Below are positions 30,592 through 63,527 of a stretch of DNA of 64,000 nucleotides, piece after piece. A program made the translations under genes and the position numbers. The notes beneath the pieces were generated by a model. It did not search any database. It had not been told where the DNA came from and was given only the letters and a program-made list of their open reading frames with translations. This DNA is from Myxococcales bacterium (lineage in GTDB: Bacteria > Myxococcota_A > Polyangia > Polyangiales > DASUME01), in assembly GCA_047601445.1 (NCBI GenBank), contig JASGJH010000001.1:3680001-3744000 (forward strand), written 5' to 3'. Positions within the stretch are counted from its first letter, which is position 1. Every line of letters begins with the position of its first letter.

Positions 30592-30780
30592 TCAGCCAAC
30601 CTCGTTGAGCACGTTGCCGATGTAGCTCAGCACGTCGCCCACGTGGGTGTTGGCAGCGATGAAGCTGGCAACGTTGATGTTGTTGCAGTTGACCGAGCCG
30701 TTGCCGATGTCGGCAAGGCCACCGGCCACGGACTCAAGAGCAGACTCTTCGACGGACACGAACTGGATGGCGTTCTTCAT
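30592..30780 (-). CDS. Double-glycine-leader secreted peptide C (62 aa)
   Basis: MKNAIQFVSVEESALESVAGG|LADIGNGSVNCNNINV...; AGGAG RBS after an A-rich stretch; paralog of the two upstream genes. Confidence 0.88.
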   Translation of the reverse strand: MKNAIQFVSVEESALESVAGGLADIGNGSVNCNNINVASFIAANTHVGDVLSYIGNVLNEVG

Positions 30781-30891: not shown

Positions 30892-31116
30892 TCAGCAGAG
30901 CGGGCCTTCGCCGCCCACGGGGCAGCAGCTGCTCACGTCGTTGAGGATGTTCAGGATGTAGCTGCCGACGTCGCCCACCGAGGTGTTGGCGCTGAGGAAG
31001 CTAGCCACGTTGATGTTGTTGTGGTTCACCGAGCCGTTGCCGATGTCGGCAAGGCCGCCGGCCACGGACTCCAGCGCAGACTCTTCGACGGACACGAACT
31101 GGATGGCGTTCTTCAT
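30892..31116 (-). CDS. Double-glycine-leader secreted peptide B (74 aa)
   Basis: Leader identical to peptide C; core LADIGNGSVNHNNINV...SSCCPVGGEGPLC; AGGAG RBS. Confidence 0.88.
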   Translation of the reverse strand: MKNAIQFVSVEESALESVAGGLADIGNGSVNHNNINVASFLSANTSVGDVGSYILNILNDVSSCCPVGGEGPLC

Positions 31117-31186: not shown

Positions 31187-31417
31187 TCAGTCGGTGGGCT
31201 GAGCAGAGGAGCCGCAACCGCCGCCACAGCCGTGGACCTGATTGAGCACGTTGAGCAGCACGCTGGCGACGTCGCCGAGACCGGTGTTGATGGTCACGTT
31301 GCTGAGCACGTTGATGTTGTTGCCGTTGAGCGAGCCGTTGAGGACGTCGGCGAGGCCGCCGGACACGCTCTCGAGGGCCTGCTCATCGACGGACACGAAC
31401 TGGATCTGCGTGGTCAT
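31187..31417 (-). CDS. Double-glycine-leader secreted peptide A (76 aa)
   Basis: MTTQIQFVSVDEQALESVSGG|LADVLNGSLNGNNINV...HGCGGGCGSSAQPTD; AGGAG RBS. Confidence 0.88.
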   Translation of the reverse strand: MTTQIQFVSVDEQALESVSGGLADVLNGSLNGNNINVLSNVTINTGLGDVASVLLNVLNQVHGCGGGCGSSAQPTD

Positions 31418-31518: not shown

Positions 31519-31538
31519 CTTGAGCAGGAGTCGTGCCG
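31519..31538 (-). promoter_or_regulatory. Sigma-54 (-24/-12) type promoter for the peptide trio
   Basis: CGGCACG-ACTC-CTGCT(CAAG), GG-N10-GC spacing, about 100 nt upstream of the ATG; 18/20 identical to 61425-61444. Confidence 0.75.
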
Positions 31539-32043
31539 GGTCGCACACGAGGGCACGGCTTCGCACGCAGGCGAGCGACGAGTTCGATCGCATCGCGCGC
31601 ACGTCAGCGCACGGTTCGGCACGGGTTCGCGCACTTGCACCGCGGCGGCGTTCCCAACTGCGTGCAGGCGGTTCGAGCGTTCGCCGGGCGCCGGGTCCGC
31701 GCGCGCACTTGCAGGGGGCCGCCGTTTGATGAAGCAGCTCACAGCCGGCGGCCCGTGAGGTCAAGGCGGTTGGCGGCGGAGCCGCTAGCCATGGCGACTA
31801 GCGAGGTGGCCGCCACTCGAGCCCAGGCCCCGAAGCCTCCCTCTAAACGCCGATCAAGTGAGGCACTTTGGCCTTGTTCAACGGGAGGCACGCGCCACTC
31901 CCGCCCGTCGCGGCGAAGCCGCGCCCCGGACCCACCCTCCGCGGGGTTCGTTGCGCTCACGAAATCCGTTGAGGTCTGGGCACCTTCGGCCCGGGTCTTC
32001 GACGAGAACTTGTCAGGGGTGCCATCCCCGCTCACTCTCGTGA

Positions 32044-57821: not shown

Positions 57822-58553
57822 ATGAGCGAGATCAAGGAGCGCGAGCCAAGCCCGAGCGTGCTGGCAAAGCGTGCTGAAAAGAAAGAGAAGTATGTGTCCG
57901 CCGCGCGCGAACTCATCGGCCAACACGGGCTAGCCGAAGCGAGTGTCCACGGCCTCGCGCGCAAGCTTGGACTCTCACCAGCCGCTCTCTACTGGTACTT
58001 CCCGTCACGCGAAGCGCTGATCGGCGAAGTGCAGCGACGCGTGTTCGCAGAGCTCGCCCAGGAGTTCCACGCGCACGGCGCCAAGCTCGTGGCCGCCTGC
58101 AAGCAGCACGACTCGGATCCCGCCACGGCGAGTCTCACCGTGTTGTTGGGCTTAGCTCACTACTACCTCGGCATGCCCGAGCGAAATCCGGAGCAGGCCC
58201 GCGTCATCGGGTTCTCGCTCGATCCGCGCGTGTGGCTCGACGCCGAAGAGGGCGCGCTGTTTGCGCCAGTGTTGGTGAACCTGTTTCGCGAAGTAGCCAT
58301 CCCGTTCCAGCAAGCCGCCGATGCCGGCGCGCTGCAGCCTGGCCCCGCCAACACGCGCGCAGTGCAGTTCTGGGCGGCGCTCCAAGGCCTGATTCAGGCG
58401 GGTAAGCTCGGTCGATTGGCCCCCACCTTGTTCGAGTCCTACACGCTCGGCATGAACAGCGCCGAGACCTTGCTCGTGGGCTGGGGAGCGCAGCGCGAAG
58501 CCGTGATGCGCGCGCGCTCACTTTGGTCCGAGCTCACTCTAGCCTTGCGCTGA
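57822..58553 (+). CDS. TetR family regulator
   Basis: LARKLGLSPAALYWYFPSREAL. Confidence 0.9.
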   Translation: MSEIKEREPSPSVLAKRAEKKEKYVSAARELIGQHGLAEASVHGLARKLGLSPAALYWYFPSREALIGEVQRRVFAELAQEFHAHGAKLVAACKQHDSDPATASLTVLLGLAHYYLGMPERNPEQARVIGFSLDPRVWLDAEEGALFAPVLVNLFREVAIPFQQAADAGALQPGPANTRAVQFWAALQGLIQAGKLGRLAPTLFESYTLGMNSAETLLVGWGAQREAVMRARSLWSELTLALR

Positions 58554-59337
58554 CTCGGTCAGCCGCTGCTAGCTCGATCCACGCGGGCGCGTGATCGCTC
58601 GCGCCTTCGAGGGCGCGTTCGGCGTGTTCCACGCCACCCGACACCAGGCGCGGTGCGAGCGCGGGGCTCAGCAGGAAGTGATCGATGCGCAGGCCGTGCC
58701 CGCGCTCCCAGCCGAAGCGCTTGTAGTCCCAGAACGTGTAGAGGGGCTCGTCCGGGTGCAGCGAGTGCAACGCATCGGTGTAGCCCAGGTCGAGCAAGCG
58801 TCGAAAGCGCGCGCGGGGCTCGGGCTGTACGAGCGCATCGTTCCTCCACGACGACTTCGACGCGTACATATCACGCTCGGTGGGCACCACGTTGTAGTCG
58901 CCCGCCAACACCACGGGCACCTTGGCCGCGAGGAGCGCCTGCGCGTGCGCATGCAAGCGTTGCAACCAGGCGAGCTTGTAGTCGAAGCGCGGTCCAGGTT
59001 GAGGGTTGCCGTTGGGTGCGTAGAGACAGCCGATGAGCACACCGGCCACGGCGGCCTCGATGTAGCGTGGCTGCTTGTCTGAGGAGTCCCCGGGCAGCTC
59101 GCGACGCGTGATCAACGGTTCGCCGTCCCGCGTCAGCACGGCCACACCGTTGTAGGATCCCTCGGCCACCCAGGCTGCGCCGTAGCCAGCCTCACGGAGG
59201 GCGGCGCTGGGAAAGCGCTTCGCGTCCGTCTTGAGCTCCTGCAAGCAAACGACGTCGGGCGCCGTACGCTCGAGCCACGACAGGAGGAGCGGCAGGCGAT
59301 TCACGACGCCATTGATGTTGTAGGTGACGATCTTCAC
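58534..59337 (-). CDS. xthA: Exodeoxyribonuclease III (AP endonuclease)
   Basis: TYNING, CLQELK, YNGVA, GDYN, GLRIDH.L, SDHAP. Confidence 0.93.
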   Translation of the reverse strand: MKIVTYNINGVVNRLPLLLSWLERTAPDVVCLQELKTDAKRFPSAALREAGYGAAWVAEGSYNGVAVLTRDGEPLITRRELPGDSSDKQPRYIEAAVAGVLIGCLYAPNGNPQPGPRFDYKLAWLQRLHAHAQALLAAKVPVVLAGDYNVVPTERDMYASKSSWRNDALVQPEPRARFRRLLDLGYTDALHSLHPDEPLYTFWDYKRFGWERGHGLRIDHFLLSPALAPRLVSGGVEHAERALEGASDHAPAWIELAAADRVSARLE

Positions 59338-59348
59338 GGCGCTCGGCT

Positions 59349-59696
59349 TCAGTCGGGCACCGCGGGAAGCGAGCCGTGGGCCGCCACCAGCTCCTCCGCC
59401 GTCAGGTTCCGCACGTCCGTCCAATAGCGGTGGGCCGCCACCAACTCTTCGTCCCAGTGCTCGAGGTCCCGGAACCCGGCCGGCAAGCCCGAGCTGCTGA
59501 TCACCACCGCCGAATAGTCGGGCTGCTGCGCGCGCCGCACGGGAGCGCGAGCCGCCTCGAGCAACGTCACGAACTCGGCCTCCGGACAACCACACAAGCG
59601 GCGCAGCTCTTCGAAGTCGACGATTTGGCCCGCGGAAGCGAAGGCCACCAGCATTCCCTGAAGGAAGGACACGCGGCGCGAATCGACGATGGTCAT
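59349..59696 (-). CDS. Hypothetical protein
   Basis: Compact ORF 11 nt upstream of xthA; PDYSAVV...GLP..GF motif. Confidence 0.6.
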   Translation of the reverse strand: MTIVDSRRVSFLQGMLVAFASAGQIVDFEELRRLCGCPEAEFVTLLEAARAPVRRAQQPDYSAVVISSSGLPAGFRDLEHWDEELVAAHRYWTDVRNLTAEELVAAHGSLPAVPD

Positions 59697-59745
59697 GGGC
59701 CCATGCTGGCAGAAGCCGCACGCGCAAGCCAGCGGAGCTGCCCTA

Positions 59746-59898
59746 GGGGTGTCCCCAATTCCGGTGCGCGTCAGGGCGCGGATTTCCGTCGCATCGCGAG
59801 CGCGCCCGCAGGCTCGACCTGAAGGTCGGGCCGAGGACGAACGCCGCGATGCGGCGGAAAGGCGCGACGCTGGCGTGCGCCGGAATTAGGGACGCCCC
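59746..59898. mobile_element. Palindromic MITE-like element
   Basis: About 53-bp imperfect terminal inverted repeats (ggggtgtccccaattccgg...ccggaattagggacgcccc), an internal hairpin and CTAG on both flanks. Confidence 0.6.
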
Positions 59899-59912
59899 GA
59901 CGCCCCCTAGCC

Positions 59913-61037
59913 CTAGCCCGCGAAGTACCAGGAGCTGAAGAATACCGTGTGCAGCGCGAGGGAGACGCTGGTCGCGTAGATCACGAAGCGCTCCACCTGC
60001 GGATTTCGGGTGGCGTAGGTGAGCATCAAGTAGAGGGCGATCACGCTGGCCGAATAGCGCTCGATGGACGTGACTCGTCCGGAGCACAGCGGAACCAACA
60101 CGGAGAGCAGAGCGAACACGCTGTGCGCCAGGTCGAGCCGGTGCAGCGAGGCGGCCACCACCGCGAACATCACGATGACCGCGGTGTAGTCGAAGGTCAC
60201 TTGCACGCCGTGATCGAAGTTCCAACGACGCAGGTCCACCACCAGCGTCCAGAGCGGAAACATCGACTTGCGCCCCCAGAACTCCTGCACCTTGATGAAC
60301 GCCAGGGCATCGCCCACGGCCTGCTGCTGCATGAGCGCGACGGCGACCAACCCGAGTGGGATGATCAACAGGAAGAGCACGCGCGGTGAGAGTTCCCGCA
60401 AGCGATAGTGATGACGATGCAGGATGCCCACACCGAACGCCGGCACCAGCAGCACGCCGCTCAAGCGCGTGAACGCGGCCAGACAGCCGAACAGTGCCGC
60501 CGGCAGTAGCTGGTCACGCTCGTAGAAGTAGAAGGCCGCGCAGACCGCGAGGAAGAACGGAGCCTCGCTGTAGAAGGCGGAGAAGAAGAACGAGGCGGGG
60601 CACATGAGTACCCACAAGGGAACCCGGCGCGCCTCCTGCTCGTCGAAGTAATGGCGTGCGATCCCGTAGAGGAAGAACAGCGAGCCCACCAGGCACAGGT
60701 TCACGACGATGAGCCCTGCGACCCACACGTCACCCGTGAGGGGAGCAAACAGACGCGCCAGATACGGGAAGCCAGGAAAGAAGGCCACGTCGCTCTGGCC
60801 ACGCTCCAGGAAGTACCCCTGGGTGGCGATCTTCCAGTACCAGCCGGAGTCCCAGCGCGCGAAAGCGTCCCAGAACCGATGATCGGGGAAGGCCACGATG
60901 GCCTTGCGGCCACCCGTCTCCGGGATTCGCAAGCGCGTGGCGAACACCAGGGCAAACAACACGGCACGCCAGAGGACCACGGCCCCCACGAGATAGGCCG
61001 GCAAGCGCAGACGCGAAGGCAATCGCTCGAGCAACAC
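59913..61037 (-). CDS. GT-C membrane glycosyltransferase (PIG-V/mannosyltransferase family)
   Basis: RWDSGWY..IA..GY, AFFPG.P, P.SFFFSAFYSE, TR..G. Confidence 0.88.
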   Translation of the reverse strand: MLLERLPSRLRLPAYLVGAVVLWRAVLFALVFATRLRIPETGGRKAIVAFPDHRFWDAFARWDSGWYWKIATQGYFLERGQSDVAFFPGFPYLARLFAPLTGDVWVAGLIVVNLCLVGSLFFLYGIARHYFDEQEARRVPLWVLMCPASFFFSAFYSEAPFFLAVCAAFYFYERDQLLPAALFGCLAAFTRLSGVLLVPAFGVGILHRHHYRLRELSPRVLFLLIIPLGLVAVALMQQQAVGDALAFIKVQEFWGRKSMFPLWTLVVDLRRWNFDHGVQVTFDYTAVIVMFAVVAASLHRLDLAHSVFALLSVLVPLCSGRVTSIERYSASVIALYLMLTYATRNPQVERFVIYATSVSLALHTVFFSSWYFAG

Positions 61038-61040
61038 GGG

Positions 61041-61229
61041 TTACTGCAACTTCCTGAGCAGGCCGAGCACCAGGGTCAGCCAGGGGACGAGCGCCAGGCA
61101 CAGGCAAATCATCGTGGATCGACGCGTGCGCTGCGAGAACAGGGGACGCACCGGTAGATCGAGCGACACGGGCGATGCGCTGGCAGGTGCTGTCAGCGTG
61201 GGGTTGGCCGGGGGCTCGGTTCCAGTCAT
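61041..61229 (-). CDS. Possible small membrane protein
   Basis: 62 aa with a C-terminal hydrophobic helix; ends 3 nt before the GT-C start. Confidence 0.35.
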   Translation of the reverse strand: MTGTEPPANPTLTAPASASPVSLDLPVRPLFSQRTRRSTMICLCLALVPWLTLVLGLLRKLQ

Positions 61230-61424
61230 GGGGCGCAACTGTATCGGAAGGGCGATCACGCTGCCAGACACGCGCACGACTTCGCACGGGCAACCGAAGC
61301 AGCCGGCAACGGCCAGTCGCGACGCCACGTTGCGCGATTCACCCCGGTGTGTTGCGTGTGAGCCAGATCAGCATCTCGTCCGCGATCACGGCCAGCTTCG
61401 ACGCCGAAACCGGAAGCCGACGCG

Positions 61425-61444
61425 CGGCACGGCTTCTGCTCAAG
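61425..61444 (+). promoter_or_regulatory. Sigma-54 (-24/-12) type promoter for peptide D
   Basis: CGGCACG-GCTT-CTGCT(CAAG), 85 nt upstream of the ATG. Confidence 0.75.
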
Positions 61445-61529
61445 GGGGGTGTGTCAACTCGTGCGGCGGCGCGATCCGACTTGCCGCCGCAGATGACGTG
61501 ATCGGTCTACGACGAACAGGGGGAACACC

Positions 61530-61748
61530 ATGCAGAAGCAAGATCAATTCGAGTCCGTTTCAGAGCACGCGCTGGATGCAGTCGCGGGCGGTCTACTGGG
61601 CAGCCTACTGGGCACCCTGACGGGCAGCCTCGGCGGCCTGGGCGGTCTGGGCGGCCTCGATAACGTGGGCGGGCTCGGCGGCCTGGACAGTGGCTTGGGC
61701 GGCGACCTCGTCGGCCAGCTGCTCGGCGCGTTCCCGCTGCCGCTCTGA
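61530..61748 (+). CDS. Double-glycine-leader secreted peptide D (72 aa, Gly/Leu-rich core)
   Basis: MQKQDQFESVSEHALDAVAGG|LLGSLLGTLTGSLGGLGGLGGL...; AGGGGG RBS; leader aligns ungapped with peptides A-C. Confidence 0.85.
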   Translation: MQKQDQFESVSEHALDAVAGGLLGSLLGTLTGSLGGLGGLGGLDNVGGLGGLDSGLGGDLVGQLLGAFPLPL

Positions 61749-61769
61749 GCGAACCCAGCGACGTGCGCA

Positions 61770-61800
61770 GGCTCGAGGGGCGACCTCTGCTCCCCGAGCC
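61770..61800. terminator. Hairpin after peptide D, between convergent genes
   Basis: ggctcgaggggc...gctccccgagcc imperfect stem. Confidence 0.4.
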
Positions 61801-61917
61801 TGCGCGTGCTCTCTCTCGATTGGGCCCGCTGCGCCGAACGGCTGGCATGGCGCGCTTACGGAGCGCGAGCCCACGACGTGCCTCAGGCGATGACGCGGAG
61901 CGGCCGCCTCGCGCGCT

Positions 61918-62973
61918 TCACTCGCACAAGTGCGAGTTCTGGTTGCACTTGGGGCCGGCCTGTCCACCGTTCTGCTGAGGTGCATCGCCCAGGCAAAAGC
62001 CGACGGTACCGAGAACACAGCAGGGAGATCCGGCCTTGTCACCGCAGGCCGTACACATGCTGTTCGAGCAGACCTGGGGCGGGTTGAACTTGCACGGCAT
62101 GTTGCACTTGCCGCAGTTCTGGAATGACGTGCTGGTGTCGACGCACGAGTCGCCGCACATGGTGCCCGGCGCCGGACAGGAGCACTTTCCAGCGGTGCAC
62201 ACGCCGGCCGGACCGCAGCTGTGGCCGCATTGGCCGCAATGACGGGGATCGGTCTGCAGGTCGGCGCAGGCGTTCTGCCCGCACGCCATGGTGTTCGCCG
62301 GGCACGCGCACTTGCCGGCATTGCACACCTGGTCGCCCGCACACACCGCGTTGTCGTCGATCTTGCCATCGCAGTCGTCGTCCAAGTTGTTGCAGCGCTC
62401 GGTCTTGCCCGGGCCCACGCGCGGGTCCATGTCGTTACAGTCGCCGCCACCGCAGGCCGTGGGCGGCAGACCGTCGCGATCGACATCGAGCGGCGAGAAC
62501 GTGCACACCATATCCATGCTGCAGCGCTCGTTCGTGGTGCATTCGTCCTTATCGGTGCAGTCGGACGGCATGGTGCACGCCTTGCCCATGACGCAGCCCT
62601 GGGTGGGATGGCACGACGCGCCGTCGTCGCAGGCACCCGGGTTGAGCACGTGCGTACAGTCGCCGGCCAGATTGCAGCGATCGTTGGTGCACTCGTTCGT
62701 ATCCATGCAGGTCTGCTGACAGGCCTTCTGCGCGGCCGCGTCTTGACCAGGCAGGACACCTCCGTCGTCGAGCGGATTGTCCACCGAGCCGTCCTGCCCC
62801 TGGCCCGGCATGCTCAGCGAGCCGTCCATTTGGGACATCATCGAGTTGCCGCCATCGTCATCGGGCGTCGTCGAGGCGTCTCCCTTGGAACCGCCTTCTC
62901 CGCCTCCATCACAGGCTGCAAAACTCAACACGAGGATGCTCAGACCGTACGTTCGTAGCTTCTTTCCCACCAT
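61918..62973 (-). CDS. Myxobacterial Cys-rich lipoprotein (MopE-like DCND motif and MXAN_6577/Stig1-like repeats)
   Basis: FAAC lipobox; DCND.D..V.PG..E.CNN.DDDCDG.ID; C.DL..D..HCG.CG..C repeats. Confidence 0.85.
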   Translation of the reverse strand: MVGKKLRTYGLSILVLSFAACDGGGEGGSKGDASTTPDDDGGNSMMSQMDGSLSMPGQGQDGSVDNPLDDGGVLPGQDAAAQKACQQTCMDTNECTNDRCNLAGDCTHVLNPGACDDGASCHPTQGCVMGKACTMPSDCTDKDECTTNERCSMDMVCTFSPLDVDRDGLPPTACGGGDCNDMDPRVGPGKTERCNNLDDDCDGKIDDNAVCAGDQVCNAGKCACPANTMACGQNACADLQTDPRHCGQCGHSCGPAGVCTAGKCSCPAPGTMCGDSCVDTSTSFQNCGKCNMPCKFNPPQVCSNSMCTACGDKAGSPCCVLGTVGFCLGDAPQQNGGQAGPKCNQNSHLCE

Positions 62974-63122
62974 AAAAGCCCCCTACGCCTGCCCTTATGA
63001 CCGCACTGACACCCGTTCGTCACCAAAAAAGGCAACTGGAAAGACCTTCGATTCTCGAGAATTCACGCAGCTATGGCGCGAGCGTCTTGGAAGGAGCCGC
63101 ACGTCGAAGGCATGCTGATGAG

Positions 63123-63527
63123 ATGAGCGCTTCCACAATCATCGAATTAAGTAAGACGCCAGTTCACTTGGGCCTGGGTGCGATTGTGAGAATTCAGGAA
63201 CCTTTTACCGGCGACCTGGAATGGTACGAGCGCTACGGAAAACGGAACCAAAAAGATGGTGTGGAAGGCCGTCTGGTGAGTCTGCATTCTTTCAGTGAAC
63301 CCTGGGATACCTGGGAGATGCATCCCAAGGGCGAAGAGCTGGTGTTGTGTGTTGCCGGCCAAATCACGCTGCTCCAGGAGATCGCCGGAGAGGTGCGCCA
63401 ATGCACCCTCGGGCCCGGGCAAGCGGCGATCAACGAGGCCGGCGTGTGGCACACCGCCGACGTGAGCATGCCCGCGACCGCGCTCTTCATCACGGCCGGC
63501 GTCGGCACCGAGATTCGCCCCAGATGA
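63123..63527 (+). CDS. Cupin domain protein
   Basis: WEMHPKGEE, GVWHTA. Confidence 0.88.
   Translation: MSASTIIELSKTPVHLGLGAIVRIQEPFTGDLEWYERYGKRNQKDGVEGRLVSLHSFSEPWDTWEMHPKGEELVLCVAGQITLLQEIAGEVRQCTLGPGQAAINEAGVWHTADVSMPATALFITAGVGTEIRPR

Follow-up and report, generated by a model that had tools for sequence, protein, structure and literature searches.

The Gly/Leu peptide described here, encoded by a small gene at 61530-61748 (+) of the window (the 64,000-nucleotide stretch of a Myxococcales genome that we analysed), is very probably exported in trans. Two C39 exporters are encoded elsewhere in the genome, and the one that serves this peptide is probably exporter 1 rather than exporter 2. 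Four features link the gene to the exporter-1 operon: its leader subtype, a promoter 20-mer, a 17-mer at the start region and a hairpin 3' of the stop codon. The open reading frame (ORF), which has an ATG start and a length of 72 amino acids (aa), looks like a real gene, judging by its coding bias, homologues, codon changes and 3' hairpin. As the best explanation of the whole, we tentatively propose a moved copy of a peptide gene that would be co-transcribed from sigma-54-type promoters, exported by exporter 1 and employed in the matrix or at the surface.

The gene, its leader and its homologues

The translation of the frame is identical to that given in an earlier note on this DNA. The note had let the gene start at 61425; this position turned out to be the first base of a promoter-like 20-mer, and the ORF itself begins at 61530. 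The leader carries Q6, F7, S9, V10, E12, A14, L15, D16, V18, G20 and G21, and it agrees at all 11 of these positions, as previously claimed, with the leaders of three peptides (the trio) encoded elsewhere in the window. This double-glycine leader of 21 aa (61530..61592, +; from the sequence and a leader matrix) has Phe at -15, Val at -12, Leu at -7 and Val at -4 ahead of its terminal Gly-Gly. The hydrophobic positions -15, -12, -7 and -4 are those read by C39 peptidase domains (excerpts of PMC10885120; the other PMC articles are likewise cited from excerpts). Leaders of this class are short and end in GG, GA or GS, and by its leader sequence the peptide fits the substrate type predicted for double-glycine PCAT/C39 exporters. 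With a matrix built from eight other genomic leaders, its own being left out, the leader scored 26.8 bits, compared with 14.5 and 15.7 bits for the best hits in two six-frame shuffles.

Cleavage after the double glycine would release a predicted mature peptide of 51 aa (61593..61748, +; from the sequence, with the stop codon within the coordinates) that has an average mass of 4630 Da (monoisotopic, unmodified, 4627.5 Da), a net charge of -3 and a GRAVY of 0.9. It comprises an N-terminal segment with G-x3-G spacing, a GGL-repeat linker of variable length, an amphipathic C-terminal segment and a conserved P-x-P-L end. The LGG repeats and the lack of basic residues noted earlier are both there, with five LGG triplets and no Lys, Arg or His in a core that is 35% Gly and 33% Leu. 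Three Ser and two Thr are present, and Cys is absent. An AlphaFold model of the peptide, of low confidence (pLDDT 64, pTM 0.33), has two helices round a loop, and a Foldseek search of the PDB with this model gave no match at E up to 10. A complex prediction for four copies of the mature core had an uninformative score of 0.02, which weighs neither for nor against assembly, and the best feature scores in the ESM Atlas (0.85) were within the range of shuffles. No family was found for the peptide in Pfam at E up to 0.1 or in NCBIfam at E up to 1.

With long ORFs of the same genome as the training set, the hexamer coding score was 0.68 for the Gly/Leu ORF, 0.85-1.03 for the trio and -0.56, -1.17 and -1.47 for the three frames overlapping the Gly/Leu ORF. 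In 2,000 base shuffles of its coding sequence the score was 0.11 at most.

From 139 candidates returned by a search of 5.8 billion proteins, the Gly/Leu protein itself and two homologues were accepted (P0002 and P0003, each with 71% identity across the aligned region). A profile of the three full-length homologues revealed no further convincing member among 1.84 billion representatives: its three hits were P0003, the Gly/Leu protein itself and the 397-aa P0004 (E 3.7e-4), which we took as a low-complexity match. Three borderline hits within the phylum, in frames of 174-403 aa, match the Gly-rich part only and were also taken as low-complexity; a further candidate, L017, was rejected, since its leader-like sequence lies within a long frame that runs antisense to another ORF. 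Of nine other genomes of the genus, one has a partial copy, L010, truncated by an assembly gap. The known family of this core amounts to three full-length sequences and one partial sequence.

P0002 is encoded on L016 in the same gene neighbourhood as the window gene, and L010 has one neighbour in common with it (49% identity). Across 61 codons, the window gene and L016 have 27 identical codons, 20 synonymous changes and 14 non-synonymous ones, and this excess of synonymous changes points to purifying selection on the gene. Both ends of the core are kept in the homologues, with Gly at core positions 3, 7, 11, 41 and 45 and the P-x-P-L end invariant in 3/3 full-length sequences. The GGL linker varies, giving cores of 48, 51 and 53 aa.

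A dispersed peptide set and its two exporters

The leader pattern proposed in the earlier note, run against the genome, matched five ORFs. Looser patterns combined with the leader matrix gave 14 double-glycine-leader ORFs at seven loci, so the peptide is not the fourth member of a group centred on one trio, as had been thought. Before these 14 genes were counted, seven matrix hits (14.2-16.5 bits) and 9 of the 22 ORFs from the looser screen were judged by eye not to be leaders and were dropped.

The Asn-rich family, with eight copies in the genome and 61 clusters in the protein collection, includes the trio, which lies on the minus strand of the window: peptide 1, the first transcribed (76 aa, 31187..31417), peptide 2 (74 aa, 30892..31116) and peptide 3 (62 aa, 30592..30780). 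It also includes a quintet of genes beside exporter 1 at 8.272 Mb (G000:C1 8,271,820-8,277,760, where G000 is the genome under study; L003 9821-15761). Eight core positions, five of them Asn, are invariant in 59/59 cores of the family; these cores were taken from 61 hits, two of which were left out because the leader pattern was not matched. A second family of three peptides, one at 4.867 Mb and two at 5.456 Mb (5,456,277-5,456,727), has a leader subtype of its own and beta-strand-like cores of alternating hydrophobic residues; it was also found in genomes G004, G005, G008, G089 and G114. A Pro-rich double-glycine peptide is encoded beside a P450 gene and a pre-ATP-grasp gene (G000:C1 about 4,099,227-4,099,403; L007). 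Finally, a Cys-rich orphan peptide at 3.944 Mb (G000:C1 3,943,749-3,943,958), with seven Cys in a 48-aa core, has an exporter-1-type leader identical to that of the Gly/Leu peptide at 12 of 21 residues. No maturase was seen among its neighbours. Its gene shows no sigma-54-type site; this leader type is thus not always accompanied by the promoter.

The same layout recurs in G008, with a quintet next to exporter 1, two Asn-rich genes that stand alone, one copy of the Gly/Leu gene, and exporter 2 accompanied by the second family. A mixed-alignment search found matches in 4 of 300 other genomes of the order, in fragmented assemblies where misses are not absences.

Peptidase_C39 matches occur twice in the genome, both outside the window, and annotation of the neighbours bore out the earlier observation that no transporter or maturase adjoins the Gly/Leu gene. 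Exporter 1 (G000 about 8.275 Mb), 4.5 Mb from the Gly/Leu gene, comes after the quintet of Asn-rich genes; exporter 2, at a distance of 1.1 Mb, comes after the 4.867 Mb peptide (G000:C1 4,867,145-4,872,080; L005 10146-15080). Each locus contains two HlyD-type genes and a C39-ABC gene; no modifying enzyme was found among the ORFs scanned at either. Two tandem HlyD-type genes per exporter operon, not one, were seen at L003 11549-13417, L005 10451-12370, L056, L058 and L064. For a TolC-type export step, the genome has 40 OEP domain matches elsewhere. Aligned with LahT, both C39 domains (G000 8,275,520-8,275,903 for exporter 1 and 4,869,434-4,869,817 for exporter 2) retain the Cys, the His and the Asp that we take to be the catalytic residues. 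The exporter-1 domain matches LahT (PDB 6MPZ) at E 2.6e-24. A C39 exporter is present in 8/10 genomes of the genus, where again the assemblies are fragmented and misses do not mean absence.

The leader of the Gly/Leu peptide is identical to the eight trio and quintet leaders at 11-14 of 20-21 residues, and to three exporter-2-type leaders at 6-7 of 20. Since the precursors are dispersed, have at least four unrelated core types and mostly lie far from an exporter, their export in trans is the simplest assumption. The two C39 domains are closely related, and for this reason either exporter may cut the leader. A dispersed library served by one exporter, as envisaged in the earlier note, is thus right as to the dispersal and the service in trans, but there are two exporters, each with its own peptide family and leader subtype.

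Regulatory sequences, origin of the core and gene neighbourhood

A predicted sigma-54-type -24/-12 promoter 20-mer (61425..61444, +; from the sequence) lies 104 nt before the ATG of the Gly/Leu gene and fits the GG-N10-GC element; the sigma-54 consensus is TGGCACG-N4-TTGC(T/A) (PMC9765219). The sigma-54 gene rpoN is present in the genome. The 20-mer differs by two mismatches from that of the trio (31519..31538, -), of which the exporter-1 operon has an exact copy upstream. Within two mismatches, these three sites (Gly/Leu gene, trio and exporter-1 quintet operon) are the only ones in 9.5 Mb, and none was found in each of three block shuffles. A scan for sigma-70 promoters and T-run terminators at the Gly/Leu gene gave 0 and 0.

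At a distance of -90 to -120, a sigma-54-type site was found at 8/8 loci of the Gly/Leu gene or the Asn-rich family, seven matching the strict pattern and L010 only a pattern relaxed after L010 had been seen. The other peptide loci had none (0/11, one with just 18 nt of flank); for the second family the count was 0/9 upstream regions. The background per 60 nt is 0.0004 for the strict pattern and 0.003 for the relaxed one. Being paralogues drawn from two genomes and a single contig, the 19 upstream regions are not independent samples. Two further promoter-like sites in G000, at 5,126,611 and 9,339,970, were not counted as members; the first lies before an ORF that is presumably multicopper-oxidase-like and the second before an operon that is presumably of the anti-sigma type.

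The ribosome-binding region and ATG form a 17-mer (61516..61532, +) that occurs twice in the genome, the second copy being located before the fifth peptide gene of the exporter-1 operon. Just after the stop codon there is a strong hairpin (61762..61808, +; z -4.57, 0/200 shuffles), and the orthologue L016 also has a hairpin after its stop (z -4.49). The 5' arm of the hairpin resembles the one after the fifth peptide gene of the exporter-1 operon. When the 45 bases after the stop were compared with those after that fifth quintet gene, they gave a score of 37, the best of 11 downstream regions and one reached by 0/60,000 random windows; the match is to one paralogue only, and L016, the orthologue of the gene, reached only 19 in the same test.

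Farther upstream, invariant columns in the alignment of the window, L016 and L010 mark a block (61273..61329, no strand assigned) that consists of GCACGGGC and then spaced GCC, GGCCA and GCCA elements. This block is a candidate enhancer-binding-protein site. It is unlike the conserved block upstream of the Asn-rich loci, and it is possible that the Gly/Leu gene has a separate activator. The shared upstream k-mers contained no single enhancer motif common to all eight sigma-54 loci (best 5/8). A block containing GCCATGGC is found 270-380 nt upstream of all five Asn-rich loci examined, among them those of the window (about 31805-31830, -) and the quintet, and is itself a candidate enhancer; in that form it is absent from the three loci of the Gly/Leu gene.

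Alignment of the whole Gly/Leu core to 15 Asn-rich-family cores gave p 0.29 (local) and p 0.50 (global) against composition-preserving shuffles. A profile of the 59 Asn-rich cores gave the Gly/Leu core no score above shuffles, and the invariant Asn residues of that family are missing from it. When the alignment is anchored at the cleavage site, core residues 1-12 resemble the Asn-rich family with p 0.005 (p 0.011 without the first Leu and p 0.086 with a larger family), and control cores in this test gave p 0.29-0.93. At the DNA level, summed over eight paralogues, the comparison gave p 0.037 for the whole core and p 0.28 after residue 12. Homology of the whole core to the trio family was not established in five tests. 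The core can therefore still be called unrelated as a whole, as in the earlier note, but not in its first 12 residues, which weakly resemble the trio family (p 0.005-0.086).

That the core had been swapped onto a conserved leader, as the same note suggested, has become doubtful: the promoter, the start region and the 3' hairpin all match the exporter-1 operon. With quintet-like sequence on both sides of the core, a moved and diverged gene copy is more likely than a swapped core. The simplest history, and from the sequences the more likely one, would be duplication of a whole gene, its relocation and the rewriting of its core toward Gly/Leu repeats. As a possible alternative, the core may have been replaced from about codon 33 onward.

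The neighbours of the gene are a PIG-V/PMT_2-type glycosyltransferase, a 62-aa one-helix ORF, an MXAN_6577-like Cys-rich protein and a cupin. The 62-aa ORF (61041..61229, -), which is divergent, lies 300 nt upstream of the Gly/Leu gene and has one hydrophobic helix at its C-terminal end. It is identical at 22 of 38 residues to an ORF at the same place in L016. Its hexamer coding score is weak (0.21), and a search with it as query did not find it in G008, which has the Gly/Leu peptide. A match in G005 (E 0.008) was rejected, as it overlies another gene and has no peptide nearby. The ORF is the only candidate for an immunity gene, and its membership of the system is uncertain.

Two groups of window genes are missing from L016. 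The first (58534-61037) comprises the genes between a TetR-like gene and the 62-aa ORF, including the PIG-V-type transferase and an ORF that we assume to be exonuclease III-like. The second (61918-63527) comprises the MXAN_6577-like and cupin genes, between the peptide gene and the next conserved gene. These differences suggest gene gain and loss at the locus of the Gly/Leu peptide.

Possible roles of the secreted peptide

We propose that this stand-alone transcription unit of one gene arose as a moved, diverged copy of a peptide gene of the exporter-1 operon. To judge from the promoter sequence, sigma-54 polymerase and an enhancer-binding protein would transcribe it along with the trio and quintet genes. 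In trans, the 72-aa precursor would be bound by the C39 domain of exporter 1 and cut after Gly21, and the product would be secreted in one step via exporter 1, with its two HlyD-type adaptors and a TolC-type channel encoded elsewhere. The secreted product would be an unmodified, anionic Gly/Leu peptide of 51 aa. Outside the cell, by analogy and in what is the weakest step, it may serve as a minor hydrophobic, surface-active component of a material built from the co-regulated Asn-rich peptides.

To an EbfG-like surface or matrix component, the analogy on which this last step draws, we assign somewhat less than an even chance. The Asn-rich family is conserved, arranged in tandem and free of immunity-like neighbours (no small membrane ORF with coding bias was found beside the trio or the quintet), so structural subunits would fit better than competing toxins. 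Counted against a matrix role for the Gly/Leu peptide are the loss of the invariant Asn residues, the absence of a profile score, the adjoining one-helix ORF, the different upstream block and the AlphaFold models, which are of low confidence (pLDDT 64 and 52) and helical, not beta.

In Synechococcus, the double-glycine-leader proteins EbfG1-4 leave the cell through PteB and are required for biofilm (PMC4997328). EbfG1-3 form amyloid; EbfG4 does not and is proposed to associate with EbfG1-3 (PMC9981879). The EbfG1-4/PteB system of Synechococcus elongatus PCC 7942, as far as the excerpts of these two articles describe it, resembles the one presented here in having several small unmodified double-glycine-leader proteins (6-7 kDa or less once cleaved), export by a C39 peptidase-ABC protein, tandem genes and a mixture of related and deviant members. 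In contrast to the single EbfG operon beside pteB, the genes here are scattered over megabases and share a sigma-54-type promoter. The likeness is drawn from the descriptions of the two systems, and the matrix function that was shown there would apply here by extension.

The next most probable explanation, plausible if on balance doubtful, is an unmodified class II microcin-like toxin with the same transcription and export. Two Gly-spaced hydrophobic helices joined by the flexible GGL linker would insert in the inner membrane of the target, the C-terminal end would bind an uptake receptor, and the 62-aa ORF would confer immunity. The size, hydrophobicity and leader of the peptide fit such a toxin, as do the two helices of the predicted model and the invariance (3/3) of core Gly 3, 7, 11, 41 and 45 and of P-x-P-L while the linker varies in length, although G-x3-G spacing is expected by chance at 35% Gly (about two triples per core). 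Conserved C-termini mark the receptor-binding regions of Acinetobacter microcins in the excerpts of PMC13188072. A small membrane ORF adjoins the gene in both the window and L016, in the manner of the immunity genes described in PMC12219008, but this ORF is divergent, scores weakly as coding and was not found in G008 despite the peptide there, and the promoter is common to loci that have no immunity candidate. The leader is longer (21 aa) than those of validated microcins (15-18 aa) and has Val where both screening patterns of that article, compared by eye, require Ile or Leu. Moreover, Pfam and NCBIfam gave no bacteriocin match.

As a system, the genes share with class II microcins (excerpts of PMC12219008 and PMC13188072) a Gram-negative host, export by a PCAT with a membrane-fusion protein and a TolC-type channel, and a Gly-rich hydrophobic core below 10 kDa (here 4.63 kDa), unmodified (presumably so here) and conserved at its C-terminal end. 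They differ from them in the 21-aa leader with Val at -12, in an exporter that is not adjacent, in two HlyD-type genes per exporter, in a doubtful immunity gene and in being known from genes alone. MccAB1 combines killing with the formation of biofilm amyloid (PMC13188072), and by this analogy a microcin-like and a matrix role are not mutually exclusive.

A more specific form of the matrix reading, which we regard as unlikely, is a fibre or coat made of leader-cleaved peptides through a dedicated type I system. The Asn-rich peptides would be its major cross-beta subunits, exporter 2 would have a beta-strand family of its own, and the Gly/Leu peptide would play a minor part as a hydrophobic cap, anchor or surfactant. 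The shared sigma-54 promoter would be the sole bond of the scattered genes. For a fibre test, the Asn-rich family is probably more informative than the Gly/Leu peptide.

We consider it quite improbable that the peptide is a secreted signal, that is, a pheromone of the ComC type or a developmental cue, with a membrane kinase as its sensor and feedback from this kinase on the sigma-54 regulon. Double-glycine leaders and PCATs do export pheromones, as in ComA/ComC (PMC10885120), and the gene is a single-copy orphan with a sigma-54-type promoter. However, no sensor kinase is present among the neighbours examined, and a very hydrophobic, low-complexity core of 51 aa with a linker of variable length would probably make a poor specific ligand. 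Lower still we place a functionless, decaying low-complexity duplicate of the Asn-rich family, carried by its promoter and leader. Such a relic would agree with the flank identity to the last quintet gene, with the disappearance of all invariant family residues and with the occurrence of the Gly/Leu gene, for this query, in just 1/9 other genomes of the genus, yet synonymous changes outnumber non-synonymous ones (20 to 14), and both core ends, the promoter, the start region and the 3' hairpin are kept in diverged orthologues.

The prochlorosins (ProcA/ProcM; excerpts of PMC10783134) also have dispersed precursor genes, some single and some in tandem, in which a conserved leader with a terminal Gly-Gly precedes differing cores. 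The earlier note's comparison with them holds for the scattering of the genes (14 genes, seven loci) and not for the chemistry: unlike in prochlorosins, there is here no Nif11-type long leader, no Cys and no LanC-like enzyme in the genome, and the main peptide family is conserved, not hypervariable. Nif11 was not matched by the Gly/Leu peptide in Pfam (E up to 0.1) or NCBIfam (E up to 1). LANC_like was not found in G000, which is 98.7% complete, and was found in 4/41 genomes of the order; a DUF4135 search was run without a positive control. A prochlorosin-like RiPP, in which Ser, Thr or Gly would be modified in trans by a distant lanthipeptide synthetase, a YcaO enzyme or the neighbouring glycosyltransferase, is the least credible explanation: dispersed precursors with one leader type, a core with three Ser and two Thr, the genome's one YcaO gene and a PIG-V/PMT_2-type transferase about 490 nt upstream speak for it, but the core has no Cys, the genome no LanC-like match (vs 4/41) and the ORFs scanned at either exporter locus no maturase, the YcaO gene lies about 190 kb from exporter 1, and in L016 the homologue of the 62-aa ORF has the end of a TetR-like gene, not a transferase, next upstream (by eye). 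Near the single YcaO gene (G000:C1 8,467,299-8,469,886) no small precursor ORF passed the coding filter; the ORF after it is presumably TfuA-like.

LahT/LahA and ComA/ComC (PMC10885120) likewise combine one protease with conserved leaders, hydrophobic at -15, -12, -7 and -4, and diverse cores; unlike here, where neither is adjacent, the LahA genes cluster with a transporter and modifying enzymes. The CTB family bacteriocins (NCBIfam NF038167, Pfam PF28158) are similar in their tandem short double-glycine-leader genes. The trio peptides match NF038167 at 14-17 bits (E 0.004-0.04), below the curated cut-off of 32, the Gly/Leu peptide does not match it at E up to 1, and PF28158 was found on 1/61 Asn-rich family hits. 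The CT pili of Microcystis were considered and set aside: the passages of PMC12397347 contain no mention of a bacteriocin, C39 or a leader. In the main texts of the open-access literature we found no description of the Gly/Leu or Asn-rich family, nor of such a system in myxobacteria.

Every part of the system is of a known kind. The combination, in which scattered and apparently unmodified cargo shares a sigma-54-type promoter and two exporters have separate families, differs from microcin, EbfG and prochlorosin loci. Service in trans, as first suggested for this peptide, is now better supported, with two corrections: there are two exporters, and there is no prochlorosin chemistry.

The export mechanism is textbook and the family of the Gly/Leu core is tiny. 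Orphan double-glycine peptides, however, are usually labelled bacteriocins without an assignable exporter, whereas here the promoter, the start region and the 3' hairpin assign such an orphan to one exporter out of two, over a distance of 4.5 Mb, and provide a testable rule for cargo in trans. They do so for a scattered, apparently unmodified peptide set in a genome without a lanthipeptide enzyme. If the peptide kills, it would represent a microcin-like scaffold without known relatives; if the set is structural, EbfG-like matrix peptides would be extended to Polyangiales-type bacteria. Should the fibre or coat, which we rate as unlikely, prove true, it would be a curli-independent functional-amyloid system outside cyanobacteria, with a regulon readable from one 20-bp element, in which a new subunit would have been born by the move of a whole gene and the rewriting of its core to low complexity.
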